Shown here: piece by piece, positions 8,618 to 63,081 of the stretch | How the letters are laid out: the number at the start of each line of letters is the position of its first letter | How positions within the stretch are numbered: the first letter of the stretch is position 1 | Assembly: GCA_036378095.1 (NCBI GenBank) | Contig: DASUXC010000084.1 | Span: 19,805 to 83,804, forward strand | From: Gemmatimonadaceae bacterium | GTDB taxonomy: Bacteria; Gemmatimonadota; Gemmatimonadetes; Gemmatimonadales; Gemmatimonadaceae | DNA: 64,000 nucleotides | Direction: 5' to 3' | Program-made: the position numbers and the translations under genes | Notes under the pieces: model-generated | What the model was told of the DNA's origin: nothing | Seen by the model: only the letters and a program-made list of their open reading frames with translations | The model's database searches: none

Positions 8618-8813
8618 CTCGCCTGTCTCGTCGTGCTCTGGCCCGGGACCGTCCCTTCCAGCATCACTGTCCCCTCGGTGGCCCGCCGAATCTAGCTCGC
8701 CCCGACGGCCCTGTCCACGCGCGGGGGCGAGCGGAACCGCTGCTCGATCATCGATGGTCAGATTCCATGCCATGACGCGGGGCTCGCGACCGCGATCGTC
8801 CGGTGGCCGCGCC

Positions 8814-8878
8814 GGGAACGGTCCACGGGAACGGTCCACGGGAACGGTTCACGGGAACGGTCCACGGGAACGGTTCAT
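8814..8878. repeat. Tandem repeat, 5 x 13 bp (GGGAACGGTCCAC; variants GGTTCAC and GGTTCAT)
   Basis: Read directly: gggaacggtccac gggaacggtccac gggaacggttcac gggaacggtccac gggaacggttcat, inside the 415-bp divergent intergenic region 8618..9031. Confidence 0.9.
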
Positions 8879-9031
8879 CCGCGCCAGGTGTTGTGGGAGC
8901 AGCGCGCGCGGCTCGGCGACGCGCGCTATTCGGGGCTCCCGGGTGACATTCGCGGCACGCGGCCATCCGCCGGGCATGGTCGCTGCGTTCCGATCGATCT
9001 TCGATTGAATGACATGAAGGAGCAGGATACG

Positions 9032-9922
9032 ATGGCCAGCAGACCGACGACGACAGCCACGCCCGCGGCACAGGCGGGCTCGATCACCATTGGCGGGGAC
9101 CTCGTGGTCGAGCGCATGGGCTACGGCGCCATGCGGCTCACGGGGAAGGGGATCATCGGCGAGCCCGCCGACCGCGCCGAGGCGAAGCGCGTGCTTCGCC
9201 GCGCCGTGGAGCTCGGAGTGAACTTCATCGACACGGCGGACTCGTACGGGCCGCACGTCTCGGAGGAGCTGATCGCCGAGGCGCTTCACCCGTATCCGGA
9301 GGGGCTCGTGATCGCCACCAAGGGCGGCCTCGAGCGGCCGGGGCCGGACCAGTGGCTGCCGAACGGCCGGCCGGAGCACCTGCGCGCCGCGCTCGATGGG
9401 AGCCTCCGCCGGTTGAAGCTCGACCGCATCGATCTCTGGCAGCTCCACCGCATCGATCCCGAGGTTCCGGCCGACGAGCAGTTCGACGTGCTCGCGGAGT
9501 TCGTTCGGGAGGGGAAGGTGCGGCACGTCGGCCTCTCCGAGGTGAGCGTGGAGCAGATCCGGCGCGCGCGCGAGGTGGTGCCGATCGCCTCGGTGCAGAA
9601 CCGCTACAACGTGTTCGACCGGCAGTGGGACGACGTCGTGGACGAGTGCGAGCGCGAGGGGATGGCGTTCATCCCGTGGTATCCGCTCGCCGCGGGGGTG
9701 CTCGGACAGTCGGAGCGCGAGGCGAGCGAGCGGCTGGCCAGAGTGGCGCGGCGCCACGGCGCGACGCCCCTCCAGGTGGCGCTCGCCTGGCTCCTTGCGC
9801 GGTCGCCGGCGATGCTCGTCATTCCCGGCACCTCCAAGGTGAAGCACCTGGAGGAAAACGTGGCGGCGGCGGGGGTGGAGCTGAGCGCGGACGACTTGCG
9901 GGAGCTCGGGAATCGGGAATAG
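9032..9922 (+). CDS. Aldo/keto reductase
   Basis: ATG 9032 is preceded by AAGGAG with a 9-nt spacer (alternative ATG at 9014). [47 protein letters not shown]. The last 7 codons and the stop lie in repeat element E2. Confidence 0.9.
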
Positions 9923-10082
9923 GGAATCTCGGGAATCGGGAAGCGGGAATCGGGAAGCGGGAATCGGCAAGCGAAGAGCACCGATGTGGATGGCAACGGG
10001 GCCGGCGACCGCCGGCCCCGTTGCGTTCCATGCTCGATCGCTTCCCGATTCCCGAGATTCCCTATTCCCGATTCCCGAGCTC
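9902..10082. repeat. Composite element E2 (GGGAATC family): perfect 44-bp inverted repeat around a 12-bp GC hairpin
   Basis: 9902..9945 (gagctcgggaatcgggaatagggaatctcgggaatcgggaagcg) is the exact reverse complement of 10039..10082. The left array continues with further GGGAA(T/G)C units to about 9972. Central hairpin AACGGGGCCGGC-gacc-GCCGGCCCCGTT at 9995..10022. Confidence 0.92.
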
Positions 10083-12359
10083 CTTCGCCATCTCGCTCAC
10101 GTGCGCCGCTTCGGCGTCGAGCACGGCGGCGATGCGGGCGATCTCGGTGTTCGCGGCCGTCCATTCCCCCTGCTCGATCGCCTCGCGCGCGCCGGGCATG
10201 GTCTTCACGCCGTAGCCCGTGTAGTAGCCCGGCGCGTAGAGCAGGTGGCGATACCACGGGCGGTTGGGGAGGCCACGATCCGACGTGAGCAGCCGCTCGC
10301 TGGCGAGGAGCTGCTCGTTGATCGACGCCAGCGACGCGCGGCGCTCACTGGAGCCCGCCGCCCGCGACGTGGTGTCGCTCTCCCCCGACCACGCGGCGTA
10401 CGCGCGCTCGAACCGGTCGGCGGCGTGCGCGAGCGAGTCGGCGGCGTTGTGCAGCGCGGCGAACTCGAGCCGCGGCGCCGGCGTCTCCCGCTCCGGCGCG
10501 CGCGTCGGGTCGCGGGGATCGCTCACCAGCGCGTACATGCCATCGTCGATGTCGCGGTTGCGCTGCTCGATCTCGCTCGCGCGCTTGTCGCGGAGCTGCT
10601 CCAGCTCGGTGACGTAGCGCTGCACGGTGGCCGCGAGGTTCGCGAAGCGGAACGGGAGCAGGTCGGCGTCGGCGAGACGCATGACGGCGGTGCCGACGGT
10701 CTGCGCGAGCGCGCGGCCGTAGACGAACGAGGTGTCGGCGAAGTGCGTGTACCAGTAGAAGTCGTCGTACACCGAGTGGTACACCCCGCCCCGGTCCTCG
10801 CCGCCGAAGCCGAGGTTGAGCGACGCGATGCCGAGGTGCTGCACGAAGGGCGTGTAGTCGGAGCCGGATCCGAGCGCGCCGATGGGAAGGTCGCCGCCAT
10901 CCTTCGGCGGCTCGCGGTGGTCATCGGAGGACCGGTGGACGCGGGCGCGCGCCTGGTCGCGCTTCCACACGGTGGCGCCGCTCTCCGGGTCGTCGATGTC
11001 GCGCGCCACGTCGTTGATGAAGCGCTCGAGCGTGTGCGAGCCCGACATCCCGAGGTATCCGCGGCCGTTCCCGTCCGTGTTCAGGTACGCGACCGCGTGC
11101 CGCGCCAGCTCCTCGGCGTGCGCCTCGGCCCACTCGGTCGAGCCGAGCAGCCCCGGCTCCTCGCCGTCCCACGCCGCGTAGACGATCGTGCGCTTCGGCC
11201 GCCAGCCGCTCTTGTACAGGGCGCCGAGCGCGCGCGCCTCCTCCAGCTCGGCCACGAGGCCCGAGATCGGGTCGGCGGCGCCGTTCACCCAGCCGTCGTG
11301 ATGGTTGCCGCGGACCACCCACTCGTCGGCCTCGCTCGTGCCCGGAAGCCTGGCGATCACGTCGTAGAGCGTCTTCAGGCTCCAGTCGGACTTCACGACG
11401 AGGTGCACGCGCGCGGGACCGCTCCCGCCATAGCGATACGTGATCGGCAGCCCGCCGCGCCAGCTCTCGGCCACCACGGGGCCGCCGAGCGCGGCGAGCA
11501 GCGGCTGCGCATCGCCGTACGAGATCGGGAGCACGGGGATCTTCGTGATCGTCTTCGCCTCGGCCACCGTCAGCCGCTTGGCGTCCTTCGTCGCGCCCAC
11601 GCCCGGCGTGAGCGGATCGCCGGGGTAGACCGGCATGTCCGCGACGCTGCCGCGCTGCACGCCATCGCGCGGGCGCATCGGCCCCGCGGGGAAGACGCTC
11701 CCCTCCGCCCAGCCATCATCGGCGGGGTCGGAGTAGATGAGGCACCCGACCGCGCCGTGCTCGGCGGCGACCTTGGGCTTGATGCCGCGCCACGAGCCGC
11801 CGTAGCGGGCGATGACGATCGCTCCCTTCACCGACACGCCGTGGCGCGCGAGCTCCTCGTAGTCGGCGGGGACGCCGTAGTTCACGTAGACGATCGGCGC
11901 GGTCACGTCGCCGTCGGCGGAGTAGGCGTTGTACGTGGGGAGCTGCTCGTCGTGCTGGCCGCTCGTGGGATCGGCGGCCACGGCCGGCTCGCGCAGCGCC
12001 GCGCGGAACGTCGTCGGGGCGACGAGCTCCACGACCCGCTGCTTCGGGGTGGGGAAGAGCACGTCGAAGCGCTCGATCCGCGCCTGCCAGCCGTACGACT
12101 CGAACTCCTTGCGCAGCCAGGCGGCGTTCGTGCTGTCGTACGGCGAGCCGACGTGGTGCGGACGCGCGGAGAGGGTTCGCATGGCCTCGCGCATGCGCGC
12201 GGGCTCGGGGATGGCGCGGAACTTCGTTTCCCAGCCGCGCTCGACGCGCGAGGACTCCGGCGTGAAGCCGCGCAGGGTCGAAGGATCGGTGCGGGTGGGC
12301 AGGATGGAGAGCCCGGCCAGCGCGAGCGCGAGCGAGAGGGAGTGAGCGGGAGTGTTCAT
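10062..12359 (-). CDS. M28 family metallopeptidase, glutamate carboxypeptidase II / transferrin-receptor-like
   Basis: Inner ATG (MNTPAHSLSLALALAGLSIL, signal peptide) of ORF 10062..12461. PA-domain block IVIARYGGSWRGIKPKVAAEHGAVGCLIYSDP, zinc-site blocks GNHHDGWVNGAADP and WDGEEPGLLGSTEWAE, and a C-terminal dimerisation-like region. Confidence 0.9.
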   Translation of the reverse strand: MNTPAHSLSLALALAGLSILPTRTDPSTLRGFTPESSRVERGWETKFRAIPEPARMREAMRTLSARPHHVGSPYDSTNAAWLRKEFESYGWQARIERFDVLFPTPKQRVVELVAPTTFRAALREPAVAADPTSGQHDEQLPTYNAYSADGDVTAPIVYVNYGVPADYEELARHGVSVKGAIVIARYGGSWRGIKPKVAAEHGAVGCLIYSDPADDGWAEGSVFPAGPMRPRDGVQRGSVADMPVYPGDPLTPGVGATKDAKRLTVAEAKTITKIPVLPISYGDAQPLLAALGGPVVAESWRGGLPITYRYGGSGPARVHLVVKSDWSLKTLYDVIARLPGTSEADEWVVRGNHHDGWVNGAADPISGLVAELEEARALGALYKSGWRPKRTIVYAAWDGEEPGLLGSTEWAEAHAEELARHAVAYLNTDGNGRGYLGMSGSHTLERFINDVARDIDDPESGATVWKRDQARARVHRSSDDHREPPKDGGDLPIGALGSGSDYTPFVQHLGIASLNLGFGGEDRGGVYHSVYDDFYWYTHFADTSFVYGRALAQTVGTAVMRLADADLLPFRFANLAATVQRYVTELEQLRDKRASEIEQRNRDIDDGMYALVSDPRDPTRAPERETPAPRLEFAALHNAADSLAHAADRFERAYAAWSGESDTTSRAAGSSERRASLASINEQLLASERLLTSDRGLPNRPWYRHLLYAPGYYTGYGVKTMPGAREAIEQGEWTAANTEIARIAAVLDAEAAHVSEMAKELGNRE

Positions 12360-12513
12360 GGGCGAACGCGTGGTTGAGTGGTGTCGCCAATCAACCGCTG
12401 GGGGCGGGGGCTCGCAACCGCGCGGCGGAGGCGTCGGGCGGGAGACTCGACCGGGGGGCACCCCGGGGGCGGCCCCGGAGCCACCTCGGGGCCACCCCCG
12501 GGTCGCCCCGGGG

Positions 12514-18938: not shown

Positions 18939-20246
18939 ATGAAACGCCGTCTCGCCCTCGCGCTCACCGCGCTCGTACTGCCGGCCACCGCCTCGCGCCT
19001 GGCCGCGCAAGACGGATCCGTGCTGCGCGCGCCGATCCAGCACATCCGTCCGGCCGATCAGAGCGGGATCAACGTCTTCGAGTCGCCGAAGACCGACTCC
19101 ACCCCGTTCAACGGCCTGGCGCTCTCGGTCGGCGCCGCGTTCACGCAGCAGTTCCAGGGACTCAAGCACGCCAACGCGGCGTCGCCGAACATGGTGGATG
19201 GCAAGGACGCGAACAAGTTGATCGACATCGGGAAGGGATTCAACAACGCGACCGCGAACCTGATGCTGAACGCCCAGCTCGCGAAGGGGATCCGCGTCCA
19301 GCTCACCAGCTACCTCTCGGCGCGCCACCATCAGGAGACGTGGGTGAAGGATGGCTACCTGCTCGTCGATGCGTCGCCGCTCGACGTCAAGGTGCTGAAC
19401 GACATCATGAAGGTCGTGACCCTCAAGGTGGGGCACTTCGAGATCAACTACGGCGACCAGCACTTCCGCCGCTCGGACAACGGGAACGCGATGTACAACC
19501 CGTTCGTCGGCAACCTGATCATGGATGCCTTCACGACGGAGGTGGGGGGCGAGGTGTACGTTCGCACCGGTCCCTTCCTGGCCATGGGCGGGATCACCGG
19601 CGGCGAGGTGCGCGGCAGCGTGCAGAACCCGAGCAAGCGCGGGCCGTCGTACCTGGCGAAGCTGGGCTTCGACAAGCAGATGGACCCGGCGCTGCGCGTC
19701 CGCCTCACGGGGTCGCTGTACAAGAACGGGAAGTCGAACAGCAACACGCTGTACAGCGGCGACCGCGCCGGCTCGCGCTACTACGACGTGATGGAGAACA
19801 TCACGTCCACCGAGACCGCGCAGGCCTGGTCGGGTGAGATCCAGCCCGGCTTCAAGAACAAGGTGACGGCGATGGTGCTCAACCCCTTCATCAAGTACCA
19901 CGGGCTCGAGCTGTTCGGCAACATCGAGCGCGCCAAGGGTCGCGCCTCCACGGAGGCGGCGGATCGCACCTGGCACCAGTACGCGGGCGACGCGGTGTAC
20001 CGCTTCGGGCCGTCGGAGAAGTTCTACGTGGGCGGCCGCTACAACACGGCCAACGGCTGGCTCGCGGGGATCACCGACGAGGTGCGCGTGAACCGCGTGC
20101 AGGCGGGCGGCGGCTGGTTCGTGACGCGCAACGTGCTCGCCAAGGCGGAGTACGTGGACCAGCGCTACAAGGACTTCCCGGTCACCGACATCCGGCACGA
20201 CGGTCGCTTCCACGGCTTCATGGTGGAGGGCGTGGTCGGCTTCTGA
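18939..20246 (+). CDS. Outer-membrane beta-barrel porin-like protein
   Basis: Inner ATG (MKRRLALALTALVLPATASRLAAQ, signal peptide) of ORF 18174..20246. Alternating beta-strand pattern, ending ...FHGFMVEGVVGF with a terminal Phe. Confidence 0.75.
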   Translation: MKRRLALALTALVLPATASRLAAQDGSVLRAPIQHIRPADQSGINVFESPKTDSTPFNGLALSVGAAFTQQFQGLKHANAASPNMVDGKDANKLIDIGKGFNNATANLMLNAQLAKGIRVQLTSYLSARHHQETWVKDGYLLVDASPLDVKVLNDIMKVVTLKVGHFEINYGDQHFRRSDNGNAMYNPFVGNLIMDAFTTEVGGEVYVRTGPFLAMGGITGGEVRGSVQNPSKRGPSYLAKLGFDKQMDPALRVRLTGSLYKNGKSNSNTLYSGDRAGSRYYDVMENITSTETAQAWSGEIQPGFKNKVTAMVLNPFIKYHGLELFGNIERAKGRASTEAADRTWHQYAGDAVYRFGPSEKFYVGGRYNTANGWLAGITDEVRVNRVQAGGGWFVTRNVLAKAEYVDQRYKDFPVTDIRHDGRFHGFMVEGVVGF

Positions 20247-20415: not shown

Positions 20416-21300
20416 ATGAGAAGCGCACCTCTCGTCTCCGGGCGCATGGTCGCGCTCGTCTTCGCCGGCGCCGTTGCCGCGGCCTGTGGCAGCGACTCCT
20501 CGACACAACCCAAGACCGTCGCCAGCGTGACCGTGAGTCCCGCGAAGGACACCGTCCAGACGGGCGAGACGGCGCAGTTCACTGCCGAGCTCAAGGACGC
20601 CAACGGCAACGTGCTCACGGGGCAGTCGGTGACGTGGACCTCGAGCGACACGGATGCGGCCCCCATCTCCGCGTCCGGCGCGGTGGCGGCGATCCTCCCC
20701 GGGACGTCGACGATCACCGCCACCGCCGGGGGCGTCTCGAACACCGCCGATCTCACCATCCTCGCCGGTGCCGCGCACCAGCTCTCCGAGGGCGAGCGGA
20801 TCGGCGACTCCACCTTCGCCCCCGGCGACGGCCCCAACGGCGGGCAGGGCGACCCGGTGGGCAGCGTGCCGTGCGCCGCCGATGCGGGGCAGCCGGTGGA
20901 ACACCGGCACTCGCACCTCACGCTCATCGCCAACGGGCAGCAGATCGCGATCCCGCTCGCCATCGGCGTGATGAACCCCATCTACAACGACACCAACGAG
21001 GCGTTCGCCGGCACGTGCTTCTACTGGCTGCACACGCACGACCAGACGGGGATCATCCACGTGGAGCCGTTCGAGGGGGGACACACGTTCACGCTCGGTG
21101 ACTTCTTCGACATCTGGGGGCAGCCGCTGACGGCGAGCGGTGTAGCGGGGTACAGCGGGAGCGTGGCGGCGTACGTGGACGGGAAGCGCTTCACCGGCGA
21201 TCCGCGCTCGATCGTGCTCGCCGATCACCAGCAGATCACGCTCGAGGTGGGAGCTCCCCTCGTGGCGCCGCCGATCTACACCTGGCCCAATGGCTATTAA
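20416..21300 (+). CDS. Lipoprotein with Big_2 (bacterial Ig-like) domain and a His-rich C-terminal domain of unknown function
   Basis: Inner ATG of ORF 20251..21300. Lipobox LVFAGAVAAAC-GS. Big_2 block VASVTVSPAKDTVQTGETAQFTAELKDANGNVLTGQSVTWTSSD. C-terminal EHRHSHLTLIANGQQIAIP...CFYWLHTHDQTGIIHVE...FTLGDFFDIWGQPL. The 3' end overlaps the kaiC start by 11 nt. Confidence 0.75.
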   Translation: MRSAPLVSGRMVALVFAGAVAAACGSDSSTQPKTVASVTVSPAKDTVQTGETAQFTAELKDANGNVLTGQSVTWTSSDTDAAPISASGAVAAILPGTSTITATAGGVSNTADLTILAGAAHQLSEGERIGDSTFAPGDGPNGGQGDPVGSVPCAADAGQPVEHRHSHLTLIANGQQIAIPLAIGVMNPIYNDTNEAFAGTCFYWLHTHDQTGIIHVEPFEGGHTFTLGDFFDIWGQPLTASGVAGYSGSVAAYVDGKRFTGDPRSIVLADHQQITLEVGAPLVAPPIYTWPNGY

Positions 21301-22738
21301 GGCACCAACCGGCATCCGCGGTCTCGACGAGATCACCGGCGGTGGGCTGCCGGCCGGGCGCCCCACGCTGGTGTGCGGCGGTCCGGGCTGCGGGAAGACG
21401 CTCCTGGCGATGGAGTTTCTCGTGCGCGGCGCCACGGATGCCGGCGAGCCCGGAGTGTTCGTCGCGTTCGAGGAGACGGTGGCCGACCTCGCGGCGGACG
21501 TCGCGTCGCTCGGCTTCGACCTCGACCAGCTCATTGCCCAGGGGAAGCTGCGCGTCGACCACGTGCGCGTGCTGCGCTCCGAGATCGACGAGGCCGGAGA
21601 CTACGACCTGGAGGGGCTGTTCGTCCGCCTCGGCCACGCGATCGACAGCATCGGCGCGAAGCGCGTGGTGCTCGACACGATCGAGACGCTCTTCTCCGCC
21701 TTCTCCAACGAGGCCATCCTGCGCGCCGAGCTGCGCCGGCTGTTCGGATGGCTCAAGGAGCGCGGCGTGACCGCGGTGATCACCGCCGAGCGCGGAGAGG
21801 GCACGCTCACCCGGCAAGGGCTGGAGGAGTACGTCTCCGACTGCGTGATCCTGCTCGACCACCGCGTGAACGGGCAGGTGAGCACCCGGCGCCTTCGCGT
21901 GGTGAAGTACCGCGGCTCCTCGCACGGCACGAACGAGTTCCCGTTCATCATCGAGGACGGCGGGCTGACGGTGCTCCCGATCACCTCGGTCGGCCTCTCG
22001 TACGGTGTGAGCGAGGAGCGCATCTCGACGGGGGTGGCCGGGCTGGATGACATGCTCGGCGGCCTCGGCTTCTACCGGGGGAGCAGCATCCTCGTCTCCG
22101 GCAGCGCCGGCACGGGAAAGTCGCTGCTGGCGGCGCACTTCGTGGACGCCGCCTGCCGGCGCGGCGAGGGCGCGCTGTACTGCGCGTTCGAGGAATCGCC
22201 GGCGCAGATCATGCGCAACGCCCGCGCGACGGGGGTGAGGCTGGCGGAGCACGTGGAGCGCGGCCTGCTTCGATTCCACGCGGTGCGCCCCACCATGTAC
22301 GGGCTCGAGGCGCATCTGGCCCGGATCGTGAAGGACATCGACATGTTCCGGCCGCGCGTCGTGGTGCTCGATCCCCTCACGGCGTTCCTCGGCGCCGCCA
22401 TGCAGCCCGATGTGCTCGCGATGGCGACCCGTCTCATCGACTCGCTCAAGCTCGTCGGGATCACGGCGATGATGACGAGTCTCAACGGCCGTGACGAGAC
22501 GGTCCTGGGGGAGAGCGACGTCGGCGTCTCATCGCTGGTGGACTCGTGGATCTGCCTCCGCGATGTCGAGCGGCACGGTGAGCGCCACCGCGGCCTCTAC
22601 GTTCTCAAGTCCAGGGGCATGGCGCACTCCAACCGGATTCGCGAGTTTCTCATCTCGAGCCAGGGGATCCGACTGGGCGAACCCAACCCGGGTGACGAGC
22701 GGGAAGGGTGGCAAGTGGAGTTCATCGAACGGCAATGA
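21290..22738 (+). CDS. kaiC: Circadian clock protein KaiC homolog (double RecA-like ATPase)
   Basis: 482-aa [24 protein letters not shown]. Walker A GGPGCGKT (CI) and GSAGTGKS (CII). Catalytic EE pairs VAFEE and CAFEE. C-terminal [44 protein letters not shown]. Confidence 0.92.
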
Positions 22739-22793
22739 CACCGCCGCCGCTCACGCCGTGCGCGGCGCGGCCACCCTTTTTCGAGTGCGCTTC

Positions 22794-23123
22794 ATGAGCA
22801 CATCCAAGGCGCCCGGCGCGGCGCCCACCCTGTCGGAACCCGCGGTCGAGCAGTGGGATCTGCGGCTCTACGTGGCCGGGCAGTCTCCGCGCTCGCTCGC
22901 CGCGTTCGCGAACCTCAAGCGGCTGTGCGACGAGCACATTCCCGGTCGCTATCACATCGAGGTGATCGATCTCGTCGCCCACCCGCAGCTCGCGGTCAGT
23001 GACGAGATCGTCGCCCTTCCGACGCTGGTCCGGCGGCTGCCGCCGCCGATCAGGAAGCTCATTGGCGACCTGTCGAACGGCGAGCGCACGCTCGTCGGCC
23101 TCAACATTCGCCCTCGCGCGTGA
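22794..23123 (+). CDS. kaiB: KaiB homolog (copy 1)
   Basis: Inner ATG of ORF 22491..23123. [74 protein letters not shown] is the canonical KaiB pattern. Confidence 0.9.
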
Positions 23124-23151
23124 CCAGCGCGCCACCACGGCGGACGATCTC

Positions 23152-23493
23152 ATGCCCGAGCAGCCTGTCAGCGTCACCGAGGAGTTCGAGCGCGCACTCC
23201 GGGGCGTGCAGCCGAACGCGCGGTACGTGCTCCGGCTGTACGTCGCCGGCTCGAGCGCGCGGTCGCTCCGCGCCGTGGAGAACGTGCAGCGGCTGTGCGA
23301 GGCGTACCTGCCGGGGCGCTACGACCTCGAGGTCATCGACATCTACCAGCTCCCCTGGCTCGCCGAGGCGGGGGAGGTGGTGGCCGCGCCGACGCTGGTG
23401 AAGGAGCTCCCGCTTCCCCTCCGCCGCGTGGTCGGCGACCTCGCCGACGAGGGGCGCGTGCTGATCGCGCTCGGCCTCAGGGTGGCGGCATGA
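23152..23493 (+). CDS. kaiB: KaiB homolog (copy 2)
   Basis: Inner ATG of ORF 22999..23493. YVLRLYVAGSSARSLRAVENVQRLCEAYLPGRYDLEVIDIYQLPWLAEAGEVVAAPTLVKELPLPLRRVVGDLA. The stop overlaps the next ATG (ATGA). Confidence 0.9.
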   Translation: MPEQPVSVTEEFERALRGVQPNARYVLRLYVAGSSARSLRAVENVQRLCEAYLPGRYDLEVIDIYQLPWLAEAGEVVAAPTLVKELPLPLRRVVGDLADEGRVLIALGLRVAA

Positions 23494-25190
23494 GCACGTC
23501 GAGCGACGAGCCCGTCGCGGGATCGACGATCGCGATGGCGGATGCGGCGGCGCGCCCGAACGGCCGGGAGGACAGCCGGCCGGCCGATCCCGGGCTGGAT
23601 GCGCTGCGGATGCGCCTCCAGGAGGCGGAAGAAACGCTGCGGGCGATCCGCCTGGGGGAGGTGGACGCGGTCGTGGTGCAGGGACCGGACGGCCCGCGCA
23701 CCTACACGCTCGTCACCGCCGACCAGGTGTATCGGCAACTCGTCGAGCAGATGCGCGAGGGGGCGCTCACCTTGAGCACCGCCGGCGTCATCCTGTACTG
23801 CAACGCGCGCTTCTCGGCGCTCCTCGGCCGGCCGCACGCGAGCATCGCCGGGCGGCGGCTCCGCGAGCTCGCCGATGCGGGCGATGTGGATCGCCTGCAG
23901 ACGCTGCTCGATGCCGCCGCGACCGGGAGCGCGAGCGGCGAGGTGCGGCTCCGGCGCGGCGACGGCACCCCCATCCCCATGCTCCTCTCCCTCAGCGTGC
24001 TCCGCGCGGAGGCGTTCAACGGGATCTGCGCCGTGGCCACCGATCTCACCGACCGGGATCACCGCGAGCAGCAGGCGGCGGACGAGCGGCTCACGCGGGC
24101 GATCCTCGAGCACGCCGCCGAGGCGATCGTGCTGTGCGATGCCGACGGGCGGATCGCGCGCGCCAACCGGATCGCGGTCGAGCTGAGCGGGGAGGATGTG
24201 GTGGGTCGCCGCTTCGAGGAGGCGTTTCCGGTGGGGATCACGTTCGCCGAGCTCACGGCGCCGACGCACGCCTCGCTCGGCGAGCGCCGCGATGGAAGCT
24301 TCGTGCGGGGCGATGGCCGCCGGGTCCACCTGCTCGTGGGAGCGCGTCCGATCGGTGGCGAGATCGACATCGACGGCGACCGGTGGGTGGTGACGCTGGC
24401 CGACGTCACCGCGCGGCGCGAGGCCGAGGCGGCGCGCGACCGGCTGCTCCAGGCCGAGCGCGCGGCCCGCGCCGACGCGGAGAACGCGAGCCGGGCGAAG
24501 TCGGACTTTCTCGCCGTCATGAGTCACGAGCTCCGGACGCCGCTCAACGCCATCGCCGGCTACGCGGAGCTCATGCAGCTCGGCGTGCCGGAGCCGGTGC
24601 CCGAGGCGCACCGCCCGTATCTCGTCCGGATCCAGGCGGCGCAGCGCCACCTCCTCGCGCTCATCAACAATGTTCTCAACCTCGCGAAGCTCGAGCGGGG
24701 TCACGTGGAATACCAGGTGGAGCCCGTGGCCGTGAGCGAGCTGTGGACCACGGTGGAGGCGCTGGTGTCGCCGCAGATCCACGGCAAGGGGCTCGAGTAC
24801 CGGAGCACGCCGTGCGATCCGTCGCTCGTGGTGATGGTGGATCGCGAGAAGGCGGTGCAGATCCTCCTCAACCTGATCGGCAACGCGGTGAAGTTCACGC
24901 CGGCCGGCGGCCGGGTGACGCTCGATGCCGATCATCTGGGCGACCGGGTGAGCATCCGGGTGCGCGACTCGGGGATCGGGATCGCCCCCGAGAAGCTGGC
25001 ATCGGTGTTCGAGCCGTTCGTGCAGATCGACCGAACGGTCGCGGGTACGAGAGAGGGGGTGGGGCTCGGTCTCTCCATCAGCCGGGAGCTCGCGCGCGGG
25101 ATGGGCGGCGATCTGACCGCGCAGAGCGTGCCGGGTGAGGGGTCGGAGTTCTGCCTGGTGCTGCCGGCGGGGGGAACGGCTCGGGAATAG
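23490..25190 (+). CDS. Cytoplasmic PAS-PAS sensor histidine kinase (candidate Kai output/input kinase)
   Basis: Inner ATG of ORF 23295..25190. Coiled-coil plus IRLGEVDAVVV, two PAS-like blocks, H-box MSHELRTPLN, N-box LLNLIGNAVKF, G-boxes DSGIGI and GVGLGLS. No TM segment. The stop TAG lies in the first GGGAATA unit of E4. Confidence 0.9.
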   Translation: MSTSSDEPVAGSTIAMADAAARPNGREDSRPADPGLDALRMRLQEAEETLRAIRLGEVDAVVVQGPDGPRTYTLVTADQVYRQLVEQMREGALTLSTAGVILYCNARFSALLGRPHASIAGRRLRELADAGDVDRLQTLLDAAATGSASGEVRLRRGDGTPIPMLLSLSVLRAEAFNGICAVATDLTDRDHREQQAADERLTRAILEHAAEAIVLCDADGRIARANRIAVELSGEDVVGRRFEEAFPVGITFAELTAPTHASLGERRDGSFVRGDGRRVHLLVGARPIGGEIDIDGDRWVVTLADVTARREAEAARDRLLQAERAARADAENASRAKSDFLAVMSHELRTPLNAIAGYAELMQLGVPEPVPEAHRPYLVRIQAAQRHLLALINNVLNLAKLERGHVEYQVEPVAVSELWTTVEALVSPQIHGKGLEYRSTPCDPSLVVMVDREKAVQILLNLIGNAVKFTPAGGRVTLDADHLGDRVSIRVRDSGIGIAPEKLASVFEPFVQIDRTVAGTREGVGLGLSISRELARGMGGDLTAQSVPGEGSEFCLVLPAGGTARE

Positions 25191-25283
25191 GGAATCGGGA
25201 ATCGGGAATCGGGAATCGAGAATCGGGAATCGAATGCGCGAGGAGCGTGCTGGCGATTCCCGTTTCCCGATTCCCGAGCCGTT
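25176..25283. repeat. Composite element E4 (GGGAATC family) between convergent genes
   Basis: Left array of 7 heptads at 25183..25231 (gggaata gggaatc x4 gagaatc gggaatc). Right arm cgattcccgtttcccgattcccgagccgt (25254..25282). The outer 13 nt (acggctcgggaat / attcccgagccgt) are a perfect inverted repeat. Confidence 0.88.
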
Positions 25284-27031
25284 CAGAATCCCACCGCCAC
25301 CCCGTCCCCCCGCGAGTCCGCGCCTCCCTCGAGCACGCCGGTGTCCGCGTGCACGCGGATCATCTGGGCGTGTCCCATGTCGGAGGACCAGTCTTCCACC
25401 ACCCGCACGCGATGGCCGCGGCGGCGAAGCTCGCGCGCGACCGCGTGCCCCACGCGTCCCTCCAGCCACAGCAGCTCGCGCGGCGAAGCGAGCGTGCGCC
25501 CCATCACCCATCGCGGCGCGTCGATCGCGCGCTGCACGTCGTGCCGCATGTCCACCAGGCGCGTGATGAGCGCCGAGTGCGTTTGCGGCTGTCCGTTTCC
25601 TCCCATCGTCCCGAACGCCGCCCACGGCGCACCTCGCTCGAGCGCGAGCGCCGGGGAGAGCGTGTGGAACGGTCGCTTCCCCGGCGCGAGCACCCCGGAG
25701 GCGCGCGCGTCGAGCGAGAAGAGCGCGCCGCGATTCTGCAGCAGCACGCCCGTGTCCGCCGCCACCTCCAGGCTTCCGAACGCCAGGTAGATGCTCTCGA
25801 TCGCCGACACCACCAGTCCGTCGGCGTCCACGACGGTGAAGGCGCACGTGTCGCCGCGCGTGCCGCAACCGGCGCCCGCGTCCACGCCTCGCGGCGCGGC
25901 GCGCGGGATCCCCGGCGCCAGATCCGCCGCGGCGATCGCCGCGGCGGGCCGAATGAGCCGGCGCCGCTCCGCCGCATAGTGCTCGTCGAGCAGCCGCGCG
26001 AGGGGAGCCTGCACGAACCGCGGGTCGGCGCACCACGCATCGCGGTCGGCGTAGGCGAGGCGCGCGGCCTCGGCCTGGTAATGGTAGTAGTCGGCCGAGG
26101 CATCCCCCCACGCGGCGACGTCGAACCCCTCGAGCAGCGCGAGGATCTCGAGCGCGGCGAACCCCTGCGAGTTCGGCGGCATCTCCTGGACCGTGATGCC
26201 GCGGTACGAGGTCGCGATCGGCTCGGTCCACTCCGCGCGGTACGCGGCGAGGTCGGCGGCCCGGAGGGGGGAGCCGAGCGCGGCGACGTCGCGGCACGTG
26301 CGCTCCGCGAGCTCCCCATCGTAGAAGGCGCGCGGCCCCTCGCGCGCGATGCGATCGAGCGTCGCGGCGAGGGCGGGCCGAGCGAGCGGCTCCCCCAGGG
26401 CCGGTACCCGTCCGCCCGGCAGGAACTCGCGCGCCGCGCTCGGGTGTTGGCGGATCGGCTCGGCGCTCGAGGCGAGCGCGCGGGCGAGCGAGCGTCCCAC
26501 GGGCACGCCCTCCCGGGCCCAGCGAACGGCGTCGGCGAGGAGCTCGCCCCAGGCGAGGCGGCCGAACCGCTCGTGCGCCGCGCGCCAGCCATCCACGGCG
26601 CCGGGCACGGTGAGGGTGGCGAGCGCGCCGCGCTCGGGGATGCGCCGCCCGCGCCCGCGCGCCGCGTAGTAGTCAGGCGTGGCGAGGCGCGCGGCCGGGC
26701 CGCTCGCGTTGAGGGCGAGCGTACGAGCGCTCCGCGGGTCGTGAACGAGCCAGAAGCCGTCGCCCCCGATCCCGGTCATGTGCGGGGACGTCACGCCGAG
26801 CGCGGCGGCGATGGCGATCGCCGCATCCACGGCGCTGCCGCCCACCCGCAGGACTCGGAGCCCGGCCGCGCTCGCCAGCGCGTGCGGCGAGGCCACCATC
26901 GCCGTGGGGGCGAACACCGGGGCGCGAGGGGTGACGAGCGCGGCGGTGCCGCGGCGAGCGCGCGGGATGGTCACGAGGCACAAGGTACGGCTCGCCAGGG
27001 GAGATGCCAATGCATCTGTCCATCTGGTCAT
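25283..27031 (-). CDS. ggt: Gamma-glutamyltransferase family protein
   Basis: 582-aa ORF. MVASPHALASAAGLRVLRVGGSAVDAAIA, TGIGGDGF, nucleophile-Thr block GDTCAFTVVDADG, TMGGNGQPQ. The start may be an internal Met. Confidence 0.85.
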   Translation of the reverse strand: MTRWTDALASPLASRTLCLVTIPRARRGTAALVTPRAPVFAPTAMVASPHALASAAGLRVLRVGGSAVDAAIAIAAALGVTSPHMTGIGGDGFWLVHDPRSARTLALNASGPAARLATPDYYAARGRGRRIPERGALATLTVPGAVDGWRAAHERFGRLAWGELLADAVRWAREGVPVGRSLARALASSAEPIRQHPSAAREFLPGGRVPALGEPLARPALAATLDRIAREGPRAFYDGELAERTCRDVAALGSPLRAADLAAYRAEWTEPIATSYRGITVQEMPPNSQGFAALEILALLEGFDVAAWGDASADYYHYQAEAARLAYADRDAWCADPRFVQAPLARLLDEHYAAERRRLIRPAAAIAAADLAPGIPRAAPRGVDAGAGCGTRGDTCAFTVVDADGLVVSAIESIYLAFGSLEVAADTGVLLQNRGALFSLDARASGVLAPGKRPFHTLSPALALERGAPWAAFGTMGGNGQPQTHSALITRLVDMRHDVQRAIDAPRWVMGRTLASPRELLWLEGRVGHAVARELRRRGHRVRVVEDWSSDMGHAQMIRVHADTGVLEGGADSRGDGVAVGF

Positions 27032-29700: not shown

Positions 29701-30348
29701 ATGCGGAAGGACGTATTCACCGGCGCCGTGCTGGCCCTGGCGTTGGCGACGGGAGCGGCGACGGCGGGAGCCCAGTCGCGCTCCGGCACGATGATGGAGA
29801 TCCAGCCCGCCACCAGCAAGCTGTGGATCGAGGGCACGTCGTCGCTGCACGACTGGAGCTGCACGGCGGGAACGGTGAACGGCTCGGTGGAGCTGGATGC
29901 CGCCTACTCCACGCTGAACCTCCAGACGAACCCGAAGATCGCGAAGACGGTGGCCATCAGCGTCCCCGTGAAGGAGATGAAGTGCGGGCACGGGAAGATG
30001 GACGGCAACATGTACAAGGCGCTCCGGGCCGACGAGTTCCCGACGATCGAGTACAAGCTCGGTGGGTACGACGTGACGCCGCAGGCGGACGATCCCGCTT
30101 CCTTCGTGATGCACACGCGCGGCACGCTCACCATCGCGGGGCAGACGAAGGACGTCCAGTTCGACATCACGGCGCACCGCGCGCCGAACGGCGAGGTGAA
30201 GGTGCAGGGGAGCCAGCCGATCGTGATGACGGACTACGACGTGAAGCCGCCGAAGGCGATGCTCGGCACGATCAAGACGGGGAAGACGGTGACGGTGAAG
30301 TTCGACCTGCTGCTGGCGCCGGCGGCGGCGAAGGTGGGGGGGCGGTAG
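29701..30348 (+). CDS. YceI-like periplasmic protein (paralog)
   Basis: Inner ATG (MRKDVFTGAVLALALATGAATAGAQ), preceded by GGAGAG, of ORF 29452..30348. WIEGTSSLHDWSCTAGTV...VKEMKCGHGKMDGNMYKALRADEFPTIEYKL...GTLTIAGQTKDVQF. Confidence 0.8.
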   Translation: MRKDVFTGAVLALALATGAATAGAQSRSGTMMEIQPATSKLWIEGTSSLHDWSCTAGTVNGSVELDAAYSTLNLQTNPKIAKTVAISVPVKEMKCGHGKMDGNMYKALRADEFPTIEYKLGGYDVTPQADDPASFVMHTRGTLTIAGQTKDVQFDITAHRAPNGEVKVQGSQPIVMTDYDVKPPKAMLGTIKTGKTVTVKFDLLLAPAAAKVGGR

Positions 30349-30350
30349 TG

Positions 30351-30498
30351 GCCGGGGGCCGGGGGCCGGGGGCCGGGGGCCAGGGAGTGGAGGAGAACGT
30401 CGAGTATGGAATGCGACACGGGGCCGGCAGTTGCCGGCCCCGTGTCGCTCGATCTCCATTCTCGCGCACCCCGCACCCCGCGCCCCGCACCCCGCGCC
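30351..30498. repeat. Composite element E5: (GCCGGGG)5 array, 15-bp hairpin, (GCACCCC/GCGCCCC)4 array
   Basis: Left heptads at 30351..30385. Hairpin CGACACGGGGCCGGC-agtt-GCCGGCCCCGTGTCG at 30414..30447. Right heptads at 30466..30498, abutting the stop of the minus-strand gene. Confidence 0.85.
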
Positions 30499-31077
30499 TC
30501 ACCGCCGCGCGAGGTACTCCCGGTACGCGTCCGGATACACCGCCACGTGGAAGTGCGCCGGGTGGTGCTCCTCGGTGGCGTCCACGACGCCCCGACGCTC
30601 GAGCACGAGGAGCGTCTTGCGCAGCCAGCGCCGGCACTTGCCCCGCTTGGAGCGGCGCAGGTCGATGGCGATCCCGGTCGGGTGCACGGAATGGTCGCTG
30701 GCGTTCACCGGCTGCACCGATTCCGGGCGCACGGCGCTCGTGACGACGAGCGGCTCGCCGCATCCGCGCCGGTACTGGGCGGCGAGACGGCGCACGAAGG
30801 TGCGCGTCTCCGGGGCCACGTAGGGGAAGCTCACCTCGTGCAGCACGTAGTCGCGCCCGGGGTGGAGGCGAACGAGGCGACCCTCGTGCACCGCCCGGCG
30901 CACCTCGCGCGCGGTGTGCGTGAACGAGTAGTCATGCGCGACGGCGTAGTGCCACACGCGCTCGACGCTGCGGTGCGAGCCGTGCAGCGATTGGGCGCCC
31001 GCCGCCGGAGGGGCGATGACGAGCGCGGCGATGATCGCGGCGGGGGGGAGAAGCGGGGAGAGACGACGCACGGACAT
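30499..31077 (-). CDS. Secreted protein with peptidase-M15/Hedgehog-type zinc-site-like motif (function uncertain)
   Basis: Inner ATG (MSVRRLSPLLPPAAIIAALVIAPPAAGAQS, signal) of ORF 30499..31347. VVTSAVRPES...SVHPTGIAIDL...EEHHPAHFHV resembles the LD/DD-carboxypeptidase fold. Confidence 0.55.
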   Translation of the reverse strand: MSVRRLSPLLPPAAIIAALVIAPPAAGAQSLHGSHRSVERVWHYAVAHDYSFTHTAREVRRAVHEGRLVRLHPGRDYVLHEVSFPYVAPETRTFVRRLAAQYRRGCGEPLVVTSAVRPESVQPVNASDHSVHPTGIAIDLRRSKRGKCRRWLRKTLLVLERRGVVDATEEHHPAHFHVAVYPDAYREYLARR

Positions 31078-41313: not shown

Positions 41314-41386
41314 GGGGAATCCTGTGAGGAGGTGGCACAAGATTCACCGGATGTTTAGCGGAGTCAACGGTTGGGGGGGAGGTTGC

Positions 41387-41547
41387 CGTCGGCCATCGGC
41401 TCTCGGCTCTCGGCCATCGGCTCTCGGCCATCGGCTCTCGGCTTGGGGCACACGCCGAGAGCTCTCTATGCTGGGCCGGTAGCCGAGAGCCGATGGCCGA
41501 GACCCGACAGCCGCGTCCTCCCGAGCGCCGATGGCCGAGAGCCGCCT
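41387..41547. repeat. Composite element E6 (CGGCTCT/CGGCCAT heptad family, core in + orientation)
   Basis: 8 heptads at 41387..41442 (cgtcggc catcggc tctcggc tctcggc catcggc tctcggc catcggc tctcggc). Core GGCACACGCCGAGAGCTCTC at 41447..41466. Complementary heptads (gccgaga gccgatg gccgaga ...) at 41482..41547. Confidence 0.88.
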
Positions 41548-48880: not shown

Positions 48881-48997
48881 GTGGGGAATCGGGAAGCGGG
48901 AATCGGGAATCGGAAGTATGGGCGGGAACGCGGCGCCGGTCGACCACGCCCCACCGGATCCCCTCGGCTCCCGATTCCCGATTCCCGATGCTTTCCC
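48881..48997. repeat. Composite element E7 (GGGAATC family) in a divergent intergenic region
   Basis: Left heptads gggaatc gggaagc gggaatc gggaatc at 48884..48911, starting 8 nt from the ATG of the minus-strand gene. Right arm ggctcccgattcccgattcccgatgctttccc at 48966..48997. Confidence 0.82.
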
Positions 48998-51264: not shown

Positions 51265-51400
51265 GCTCGGGATGTACGGGTCGGGTGCAATCTATAACAA
51301 CGGCGCCGTGCCGCGGCGCGGGATCTCCGTGCATGACGCGCGCGCGCGTGGGTCGTCAGCAGAGAGACGGGGCGGTCGGCGCTCGCCCCTCGGGAAGACG

Positions 51401-51500
51401 CGGCTGTCGGCTCTCGGCTCTCGGCCATCGGTGACTGCCCCGCGTAGCGAGCTCCCGGCGTGTGCCGTAGCCGAGAGCCGAGGCCCGAGAGCCGACAGCC
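51401..51500. repeat. Composite element E9 (CGGCTCT/CGGCCAT family, core in - orientation)
   Basis: Heptads ctgtcgg ctctcgg ctctcgg ccatcgg at 51404..51431. Core at 51447..51466 (reverse complement GGCACACGCCGGGAGCTCGC, 18/20 identical to E6). Complementary heptads ccgagag ccgaggc ccgagag ccgacag at 51471..51498. Confidence 0.88.
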
Positions 51501-51612
51501 GGGTCTTCGCCCCGTCGCTCGTGGTGAGTTTTCCGTCCCCCGTCATCCGAAGTCCGATTGCCGGTACGCGATCGGACGAGCAACTTCGCTGGCCCACGCG
51601 GGTACCTGTAGG

Positions 51613-62690: not shown

Positions 62691-62880
62691 CGGTCGGTTC
62701 TCGGCTCTCTGCTCTCGGCTCTCGGCTCTCGGCTCTCGGCTCTCGGCTCTCGGCTCTCGGCCATCGGCTCTCGGCTAAAGTCCCGCACGGAGAGCTCTCG
62801 GGGTGTGCCGCAAGCCGAGAGCCGAGAGCCGATGGCCGATGACCGATGGCCGATGGCCGATGACCGATGGCCGAGAGCCG
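62691..62880. repeat. Composite element E10 (CGGCTCT/CGGCCAT family, core in - orientation), the largest array in the window
   Basis: 12 heptads at 62691..62774 (ctctcgg x8 with variants). Core at 62790..62809 (reverse complement GGCACACCCCGAGAGCTCTC, 19/20 identical to E6). 9-10 complementary heptads (ccgagag, ccgatgg, ccgatga) at 62815..62880. Confidence 0.92.
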
Positions 62881-63033: not shown

Positions 63034-63081
63034 GGGCCGAGAGCCGAGCCGAGAGCCGAGGACCGCCCGTTCCGGGCGGTC
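63034..63081. repeat. Solo half-array of the same heptad family plus a hairpin
   Basis: gggccgagagccgagccgagagccgagg, followed by GACCGCCC-gttcc-GGGCGGTC (63061..63081), just upstream of the RBS and ATG at 63104. Confidence 0.5.

Follow-up and report, generated by a model that had tools for sequence, protein, structure and literature searches.

Tandem heptad repeats with the unit GGGAATC or GGGNATC were described in Xanthomonas by Rehm et al. (2015, PLoS One, PMC4692102), together with GGGGA(C/T)T repeats in Nostoc. In that study, 186 GGGAATC repeats were counted in the genome of Xanthomonas campestris and 183 in that of X. axonopodis, with 70 and 75 cases, respectively, of arrays paired in convergent inverted orientation; such pairs were rare in Nostoc. 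The Xanthomonas arrays are mostly intergenic and dispersed, vary in unit number, keep their position between species, and lie 0-50 bp from a stop codon or overlap it, the G-rich strand being the coding strand. GGGAATC oligonucleotides formed G-quadruplexes (G4) in vitro, as shown by circular dichroism (CD) spectroscopy, in a K+-dependent manner and with four units preferred. 'Increased genomic stability' was reported for the Xanthomonas repeats, and among gamma-proteobacteria the repeat was reported as restricted to Xanthomonas, with cyanobacteria as further hosts. Here, a palindrome built of such heptads is described from a 64,000-nucleotide stretch of Gemmatimonadaceae DNA (GenBank assembly GCA_036378095.1, contig DASUXC010000084.1 of 118 kb, positions 19,805 to 83,804; hereafter, the window). 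It lies between the convergent 3' ends of an aldo/keto reductase gene and a peptidase gene and supplies both with a stop codon and the same C-terminal tail.

The class was defined in PMC4692102 as tandem arrays of at least 14 bp of GGGANTN units with at least one GGGAATC. Both arrays of the palindrome, with 8.6 and 5 units, fall within this definition, and both stop codons lie inside them. Three GGGAATC loci were found in the 64 kb, all of them between genes, and at 3/3 of these the G-rich array precedes the C-rich one. The unit numbers of the six window arrays (six only) were 8.6, 5, 7.4, 3.4, 4.3 and 3. Judged by the sequence-level criteria of the published class, the element is a member of it. 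The Gemmatimonadaceae, in which the names of the homologues place the organism, are thus a new host, and their phylum a new phylum, for the GGGAATC class; the element is not a new kind of system. A literature search returned no paper on such repeats in Gemmatimonadota, and the heptad was mentioned only by Rehm et al. and in some Xanthomonas variable-number tandem repeat (VNTR) typing schemes.

Anatomy of the palindrome and of the two gene ends

The palindrome spans 183 bp (9901-10083) and consists of two inverted GGGAATC arrays flanking a GC-rich hairpin. A repeat search found its outer arms to be 45 nt long, 100% complementary and 93 nt apart. A preliminary description of this DNA, made from its letters alone, had noted a perfect inverted repeat of 44 bp; the arms are indeed exact reverse complements, and the repeat runs one base further on each outer side. 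The open reading frame (ORF) on the plus strand ends at 9922 and that on the minus strand at 10062. Both translations close with ELGNRE followed by TAG, as had been stated, with the stop codon at 9920-9922 for the plus-strand gene and as CTA at 10062-10064 of the plus strand for the minus-strand gene. Both gene ends read GAG CTC GGG AAT CGG GAA TAG. The TAG arises where two units meet, its TA closing a GGGAATA unit and its G opening the following one, in agreement with the earlier attribution of the stop to this variant; a standard GGGAATC unit gives no stop. Both proteins end in ELGNRE because both genes enter identical arms in the same register.

The coding properties of the repeat were then considered. 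The array (GGGAATC)n, read as GGG AAT CGG GAA TCG GGA ATC, has no stop in the three forward frames, and (GATTCCC)n, read as GAT TCC CGA TTC CCG ATT CCC, has none in the three reverse frames. Because all six frames are open, an ORF whose end has been overrun by an array reads on until it meets a stop-making variant. GGGAATA followed by G is a single-base variant that supplies such a stop (TAG). Thus, the final codons of a gene, together with its stop codon, can come from a simple-sequence repeat that is open in six frames.

Table 1. Coordinates of the palindrome, the two genes at its sides and the other GGGAATC pairs of the window
Feature	Position	Strand	Description
Left perfect arm	9901..9945	+	GGAGCTC + GGGAATC GGGAATA GGGAATC TC GGGAATC GGGAAGC G; holds the reductase stop TAG
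Right perfect arm	10039..10083	-	Exact reverse complement of the left arm; holds the peptidase stop
Left heptad array	9906..9967	+	8.6 units TCGGGAA (= GGGAATC), Tandem Repeats Finder (TRF); G-rich on the reductase coding strand
Right heptad array	10042..10078	-	5 units; G-rich on the peptidase coding strand
Central GC-rich hairpin	9987..10030		21-nt arms, 90% complementary, 2-nt gap, 14-bp perfect core, no T/U run
Aldo/keto reductase gene	9032..9922	+	AKR13-like, 296 aa as called in database; last 6 codons + stop within left arm
Peptidase gene	10062..12359	-	GCPII/NAALADase-like M28 peptidase, 765 aa as called; last 6 codons + stop within right arm
Second GGGAATC inverted pair	25175..25283		Between Kai-linked PAS histidine kinase (+) and gamma-glutamyltranspeptidase (-, stop 25283-25285); 2 mismatches in 31
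Third GGGAATC inverted pair	48884..48989		Divergent 5' region, alanine-racemase-like gene (-) / Ser/Thr kinase gene (+)

The two halves of the palindrome differ in length. The left array goes beyond the inner end of the perfect arm by about 22 nt (9967 vs 9945), and arm alignment showed the left half to be 33 nt longer than the right half. Nine consecutive G3 tracts of the left array (9900-9961, regular-expression search) fit the quadruplex motif G3N1-7, and four-tract motifs (G3N1-7 x4) were found on both coding strands by a check of the sequence motif only.

When folded as RNA, a 196-nt region containing the palindrome reached -155.4 kcal/mol, compared with -83.2 for shuffled sequences (z = -15.7), and the other strand reached -151.4 kcal/mol. 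As single-stranded DNA (ssDNA), the region gave -94.6 (z = -15.0); folding as RNA and as ssDNA had been proposed in the preliminary description. The dodecamer GGGAATCGGGAA, with at most 1 mismatch allowed, occurs 23 times in the window, with 0.2 occurrences expected. The repeat density and the folding of the palindrome are far beyond chance.

Known classes of structured elements were not recovered. A search for Rho-independent terminators returned 0 terminator-like sites in 9700-10300 on both strands; a stem is present and a T run is absent. Rfam gave only generic long-hairpin matches to plant miRNA precursors, at 68 bits against a gathering threshold of 168 bits. The motif of the inner hairpin, CGGGGC...GCCCCG, was not enriched as a dispersed terminator motif (3 matches vs 3.3 expected).

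The reductase carries Pfam domain PF00248 (E 6.5e-74), and its closest solved relative is AKR13B2 (8hnq, 1.9e-108), the alignment with which ends at ...EL, one residue short of the chain end. The peptidase contains the PA, M28 and TFR_dimer domains (Pfam PF04253, PF04389, PF02225), matches GCPII/GCPIII structures at 1e-93, and has its final Pfam domain ending 13 residues ahead of the stop. The tail lies past the Pfam domain ends in both proteins, and at the AKR13B2 chain end. Longer ORFs are possible for both genes, starting at 8888 for the reductase and extending to 12461 for the peptidase.

The 120 best matches were collected for each protein, including the window's own copies (P0001 for the reductase and P0121 for the peptidase, each 100% identical). 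In this comparison with orthologs, which had been proposed in the preliminary description, 0/238 other homologues (119 per protein among the best matches listed) ended in ELGNRE or in any other heptad-encoded tail, so that the refuting condition set in that description did not arise. In the reductase homologues, ...DLREL precedes a variable end of one to seven residues, which starts with G in several of them, and the peptidase homologues end in ...x-L-(G/S/N)-x-x-(R/K). The C-terminal lengths of both window proteins are modal for their families: 20 residues follow the HLEEN motif in the reductase, and 40 residues run from EAIEQ to the end in the peptidase, as in 63/120 homologues.

For comparison at the DNA level, the nearest relatives were used, namely, L001 (GCA_035760785.1) and L121, with 79-82% protein identity. 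Homology to both runs through ...CG(G/C) GAG CT in the reductase gene and through ...ATG GCG.AG ..G CT in the peptidase gene, and in each case its limit falls within the Leu codon where the arm begins on its outer side. Because homology stops at this point and the modal C-terminal length is kept, only about four codons and the stop have been overwritten in each gene, and neither gene is truncated or extended. The earlier suggestion that the element replaced the native 3' ends of both genes is therefore retained as to the border and narrowed as to the extent.

Source of the arm identity

Several irregularities are common to both arms: unit 2 is the A variant, unit 5 is a G variant, and unit 3 is followed by a 2-nt 'TC' phase slip. 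Both arms also share seven non-heptad outer bases (GGAGCTC). Since such irregular features would not arise twice by slippage, one arm was copied from the other, and a copy event between the arms is the only reasonable source of their identity. Recent insertion, gene conversion and selection on a long stem had been put forward earlier as causes of the perfect repeat. The degree of identity is exceptional: when 50 array pairings were scored for the longest exact complementary stretch, the median was 15 nt and the maximum elsewhere was 27 nt, compared with 45 nt here.

Identity along the palindrome is uneven. The outer part matches at 45/45 positions and the inner hairpin at 19/21; in the middle, the left arm has 33 extra nt, mostly heptad units, and there are substitutions. 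Because the outer 45 nt are perfect and the middle and the inner hairpin have diverged, the outer part is the younger of the two. Homogenisation of an imperfect palindrome that was already in place accounts for this pattern better than one insertion or one fold-back event would.

The best explanation, to which a probability of roughly 0.65 is assigned, is a recent arm-to-arm copy by template switching within a palindrome of the GGGAATC class that overran both gene ends. We infer that during replication, intramolecular template switching would have copied one arm onto the other, as in quasipalindrome 'correction'. The switch was probably resolved at a short GAGCT homology formed by the Glu-Leu codons of the reductase gene and the x-Leu codons of the peptidase gene near their stops; GAGCTC is its own reverse complement. 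Template switch-back needs only a few bases, unlike RecA-dependent conversion. In at least one of the genes, the event would have overwritten the stop and roughly the last four codons; this would have been tolerated because the very ends of these proteins vary and are not part of the conserved domains. Quasipalindrome template switching is an established replication error in E. coli that makes imperfect inverted repeats more perfect (PMC7202029).

Several points weigh against this explanation. No strain above 82% protein identity is present in the database (the closest have 82% and 79%), and the pre-event state and the donor arm were not observed. The arms are now asymmetric, with the left half 33 nt longer, which calls for extra slippage events. 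Known quasipalindrome corrections are usually shorter than 45 nt. Finally, the sequence comes from a metagenome assembly, and a metagenome scan with a 24-mer of the peptidase coding sequence yielded no independent assembly of the locus.

The last two points raise the matter of an assembly artefact, in which the palindrome or the reductase-peptidase junction would be a chimeric join in a contig of a metagenome-assembled genome (MAG). It would be in keeping with such a join that the gene content differs from that of the relatives exactly at the repeat. However, the arms are oppositely oriented and share no k-mers that could be mis-joined, a 45-nt inverted repeat is shorter than the usual assembly k-mers, the spacer is unique and contains a regular hairpin, both ORFs are in frame at exactly the modal length, and similar elements occur in isolate genomes. 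On these structural grounds, an artefact is very unlikely.

The gene order of the relatives bears on another alternative. In both L001 and L121, the order is reductase, CarboxypepD_reg-like gene and amine oxidase, followed by the oppositely oriented peptidase, and plain GC-rich hairpins without heptads lie just after the stop codons. The window has neither of the two intervening genes and carries the heptad palindrome in their place; the central hairpin occupies the position that the plain GC hairpins hold right after the stops in the relatives. A one-step fold-back (snap-back) replication error at the reductase terminator hairpin could thus have made an inverted copy of the reductase 3' end, which was rejoined at the GAGCT microhomology in the peptidase gene with deletion of about 3.2 kb (two genes). 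The coincidence of the arm border with the self-complementary GAGCTC would agree with this course of events. However, a single event should leave the arms uniformly identical, and only the outer 45 nt are perfect. Moreover, the similarity between the inner hairpin and the reductase terminator of the relatives is weak, as MAFFT alignment was uninformative and only short GC-rich matches were seen by eye. The difference in gene content cannot be polarised as loss here or gain in the relatives, since more distant relatives have the peptidase in another context. The fold-back is considered possible but unlikely.

It was also considered whether the arms are kept identical, and the tail maintained, by purifying selection for a long and perfect stem of RNA or DNA (a terminator, an RNase III site or a cruciform). 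The very stable hairpin predicted on both strands and its location between convergent genes speak for such selection, as does the observation that Xanthomonas transcripts start or stop more often at G4-capable repeats (PMC4692102). However, imperfect arms occur in other pairs of the class, two of them in this window, so the class does not require perfection. RNA stems tolerate G-U pairs and mismatches, and a 45/45 match is therefore not predicted; the inner part of the same stem has been free to diverge. Selection on the stem, which had been among the causes first proposed, cannot alone give 45/45 when other pairs of the class are far less perfect, and it is regarded as quite improbable.

Recent insertion was the remaining proposal, and here it would mean that a mobile palindromic element resembling a miniature inverted-repeat transposable element (MITE) was inserted and replaced both 3' ends. 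Terminal inverted repeats, the several heptad palindromes of the window and the absence of the element in the relatives are what such an element would show. However, the search for target-site duplications at the outer borders gave a best direct match of 3 nt between the 20-nt flanks. The non-heptad core (9966-10038) was unique in the window and in the fetched loci described below, save for a 26-nt hairpin resemblance, and the copies share only the heptad lattice, with differing unit numbers and spacers. In addition, the class behaves as a length-variable simple-sequence repeat whose position is conserved between Xanthomonas species (PMC4692102). Mobile-element insertion was rejected for lack of a target-site duplication and because of the unique core, and we give it hardly any credence.

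The shared ELGNRE is a by-product of the coding properties of the repeat and of arm-to-arm copying and is not a conserved protein feature. In this way, arm-to-arm copying in a palindrome can give two unrelated proteins the same tail.

Heptad arrays elsewhere in the window and in other genomes

The pairs of TCGGGAA (= GGGAATC) in the window lie at 9.9, 25.2 and 48.9 kb (Table 1). At the second of these, the Kai-linked kinase stops at a TAG (25188-25190) inside GGGAATA-G, exactly as the preliminary description had it. This kinase belongs to a row of genes consisting of KaiC (21146-22738), KaiB (22966-23493) and the PAS-HisKA-HATPase kinase (23124-25190). The presence of this kaiC-kaiB-PAS histidine kinase cluster (21146-25190) in a Gemmatimonadaceae genome was recorded as a side observation; the syntenic stretch of L001 has a gene for a 126-aa hypothetical protein instead.

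A second heptad family, TCGGCTC / GAGCCGA with GCCATCG variants, was found at 41385-41544, 51365-51501, 62694-62880 and 63036-63060. It forms inverted-array palindromes without G tracts, with pairs at 41.4, 51.4 and 62.7 kb. Most of these are in divergent 5' regions (Sua5 / unknown; MprF-like / unknown), and one stands between co-oriented genes, from the 3' end of an M28 peptidase gene to the 5' end of a DUF3857 gene. At the 51.4-kb element, the inverted repeat runs 13 nt past the heptads into unique sequence. Taken together, the six GGGAATC and TCGGCTC palindromes of the window include three in divergent 5' regions and one between co-oriented genes. Period 7 dominates the longer-period tandem repeats of the window, with 11 arrays vs 0-3 each for periods 5, 6 and 8-13.

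Another convergent gene pair, at 30347-30501, has the heptad-array layout of the 9.9-kb element with two different G-rich heptads. There, (GGCCGGG)x5 directly follows a plus-strand TAG stop, and (CGCACCC)x4.4, which is GGGTGCG on the minus strand, precedes the stop of the minus-strand gene. The arrays are not mutually complementary, and each is G-rich on the coding strand of its own gene. Between them lies a perfect hairpin of 17 bp (30413-30448), which matches the inner hairpin of the 9.9-kb element with 92% identity over 26 nt.

The occurrence of the repeat in other organisms was studied by a scan for GGGAATCGGGAAKCGGGAAT with one genome per species, which gave at least 119 loci. Among the matches listed, there were many Xanthomonadales (Xanthomonas, Luteimonas, Rhodanobacter, Dokdonella), filamentous cyanobacteria (Moorena, Microcoleus, Nostoc), about a dozen Gemmatimonadaceae/Gemmatimonadota contigs, and Acidobacteriota, Thermoanaerobaculia and others. 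Single matches among those listed were seen in a Thermoplasmata archaeon, Vibrio jasicida, Elusimicrobia, Gemmataceae and Pirellulales; the genome of the window itself was not among the listed matches. The GGGAATC class is thereby extended from Xanthomonas and cyanobacteria to Gemmatimonadaceae, with matches in Acidobacteriota and several other lineages.

Many of the scanned loci were laid out as a G-rich array, a spacer and a C-rich array. When pairs within 300 nt were counted in the window and the fetched loci (L002-L120), 50 had the G-then-C polarity vs 2 with C-then-G. This polarity is not required by hairpin formation alone. The extension of the class thus raises the question of why the same heptad recurs across phyla with the same strict polarity.

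The ends of long ORFs (at least 120 codons) were surveyed at 202 arrays of the window and the fetched loci. At 85/202 arrays, a long ORF ended inside the array or at most 60 nt upstream of it. Nineteen long ORFs ended inside arrays, and 16 of these 19 stopped at a TAG within a heptad unit. Heptad-derived tails (SRE*, GNRE*, GNGE*) were found in Rhodanobacteraceae, Luteimonas, Moorena and this window, and at several other arrays, the stop TAG overlapped the first GGG of the array. A bias of GGGAATA toward gene-proximal units was not found, as the TA variant made up 9-11% at every unit position. For annotation, these findings mean that tails such as ...GNRE or ...SRE beside such arrays are repeat-derived and not conserved protein features.

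Short-period arrays were also observed at other places where the window and its relatives differ. In addition to the two genes mentioned above, the window lacks a PAS histidine-kinase gene that L001 and L121 carry upstream of the reductase. The corresponding site, between a cytidylate-kinase-like gene and the reductase gene, holds a 13-mer array of CGGGAACGGTCCA (x4.8, 95% matches, 8813-8874). Both gene-deficient sites around the reductase thus hold arrays with a CGGGAA core (8813-8874 and 9901-10083). About 95 nt upstream of the peptidase start lies an 11-mer array of GGGGCCACCCC (x5.4, 12454-12513), at a place where L001 has a 23S_rRNA_IVP-family gene. The L001 contig itself ends in a 12-mer array of GCGCGGCACCCG (x10.2, 98% matches, 20820-20940). 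This contig end suggests that assemblies in this family break at arrays of short period and that MAGs under-sample such arrays.

When window positions 6273-30328 were compared with L001, arrays of at least 4 units were present at 4/6 gene-order junctions (8.8, 9.9, 12.45 and 25.2 kb) and at 0/5 conserved adjacencies. These counts are small and confounded by the short spacers of conserved operons, and their direction is opposite to the 'increased genomic stability' reported for Xanthomonas. It is a remote and speculative idea that in this lineage G-rich short-period arrays are marks of, or agents in, DNA breakage and rejoining and not just products of slippage. The 50:2 polarity, in which the G-rich strand runs 5'->3' toward the centre from either side, would result if the two 3' ends of a break had each received one and the same G-rich unit before being joined; as an alternative, the palindromes may themselves cause breaks and template switches by which adjacent gene ends are remodelled.

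Possible role and comparison with known systems

Whichever of the two genes is transcribed, the transcript would have a very stable hairpin at its end, and the central hairpin lies where the relatives have their terminator-like hairpins. From these two features, the most economical and most likely role of the palindrome would be to stop transcription in both directions and/or to protect the 3' ends of the convergent transcripts; it is also the weakest step of the interpretation. A quadruplex of the G-rich arm may form as a competing structure. Three facts tell against the proposed role. There is no U tract at the palindrome, so a terminator role is doubtful; half of the heptad palindromes of the window lie in divergent 5' regions and not at 3' ends; and Rehm et al. 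found no regulatory effect and could assign no regulatory role to the GGGAATC class (PMC4692102).

The competing structure leads to an alternative in which the functional unit is the quadruplex-prone or simply G-rich array on the sense strand after each stop, with the complementarity of the arms resulting only from the shared heptad. Both arrays fit G3N1-7 x4 on the coding strand of their own gene, and the preference for four units in G4 formation by GGGAATC oligonucleotides (PMC4692102) points in the same direction. The strict 50:2 polarity and the pair at 30347-30501, where non-complementary G-rich arrays (GGCCGGG, GGGGTGC) stand on the respective coding strands around a similar hairpin, would also be expected if the array were the unit. 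However, the complementary arm is only 93 nt away, and the duplex (-155 kcal/mol) should outcompete a quadruplex. The TCGGCTC/GAGCCGA family shows the same inverted-array architecture with no G tracts, and the shared irregularities of the arms would be left unexplained, so that a copy event would still be needed. This alternative appears rather unlikely.

Among the known systems, the REP sequences (repetitive extragenic palindromic), with BIME (bacterial interspersed mosaic elements) and REPIN, are intergenic palindromic repeats that often lie at 3' ends and can form mRNA-stabilising hairpins. REPs are fixed-sequence imperfect palindromes of about 20-40 nt that are spread by RAYT (REP-associated tyrosine transposases). 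Unlike these, the present element shares only a variable-length heptad lattice with other copies, and its core is unique. No fixed palindromic unit was found to recur beyond the heptads, and no search was made for a RAYT gene. Intrinsic bidirectional terminators resemble the element in having a GC-rich hairpin between convergent genes, and in the relatives these gene ends carry plain hairpins; unlike such terminators, the palindrome has no U/T run on either side, and its stem is extended by about 45 bp by heptads that reach into both ORFs.

The cyanobacterial short tandemly repeated repetitive (STRR) heptamers were reportedly described by Mazel et al. in 1990. They are period-7 tandem arrays dispersed in intergenic DNA and have no known function. 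The present arrays are like them in being period-7 and intergenic, and the scan also matched Moorena, Microcoleus and Nostoc; the STRR units differ in sequence from GGGAATC. As to the origin of the arms, the likeness to quasipalindrome template switching lies in the copying of one arm from the other, in the short homology used to switch back and in the multi-base changes made at once. Template switching is, however, a mechanism and not a family of elements, and at this locus it is a proposed one. Compared with classical examples, the proposed tract of 45 nt is longer and extends into two coding regions.

The closest system remains that of the Xanthomonas GGGAATC repeats. The unit and its variable positions are identical, the number of units varies, and the arrays form convergent inverted pairs, with the G-rich coding strand at or over the stop codon and the G4 motif present. 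Unlike the Xanthomonas repeats, the element has arms that are perfect over 45 nt and include the stop codons of both neighbouring genes. Divergent regions, which are under-represented among the sites in Xanthomonas, hold half of this window's heptad palindromes, and a second heptad family without G tracts (TCGGCTC) coexists with GGGAATC in this window in the same architecture.

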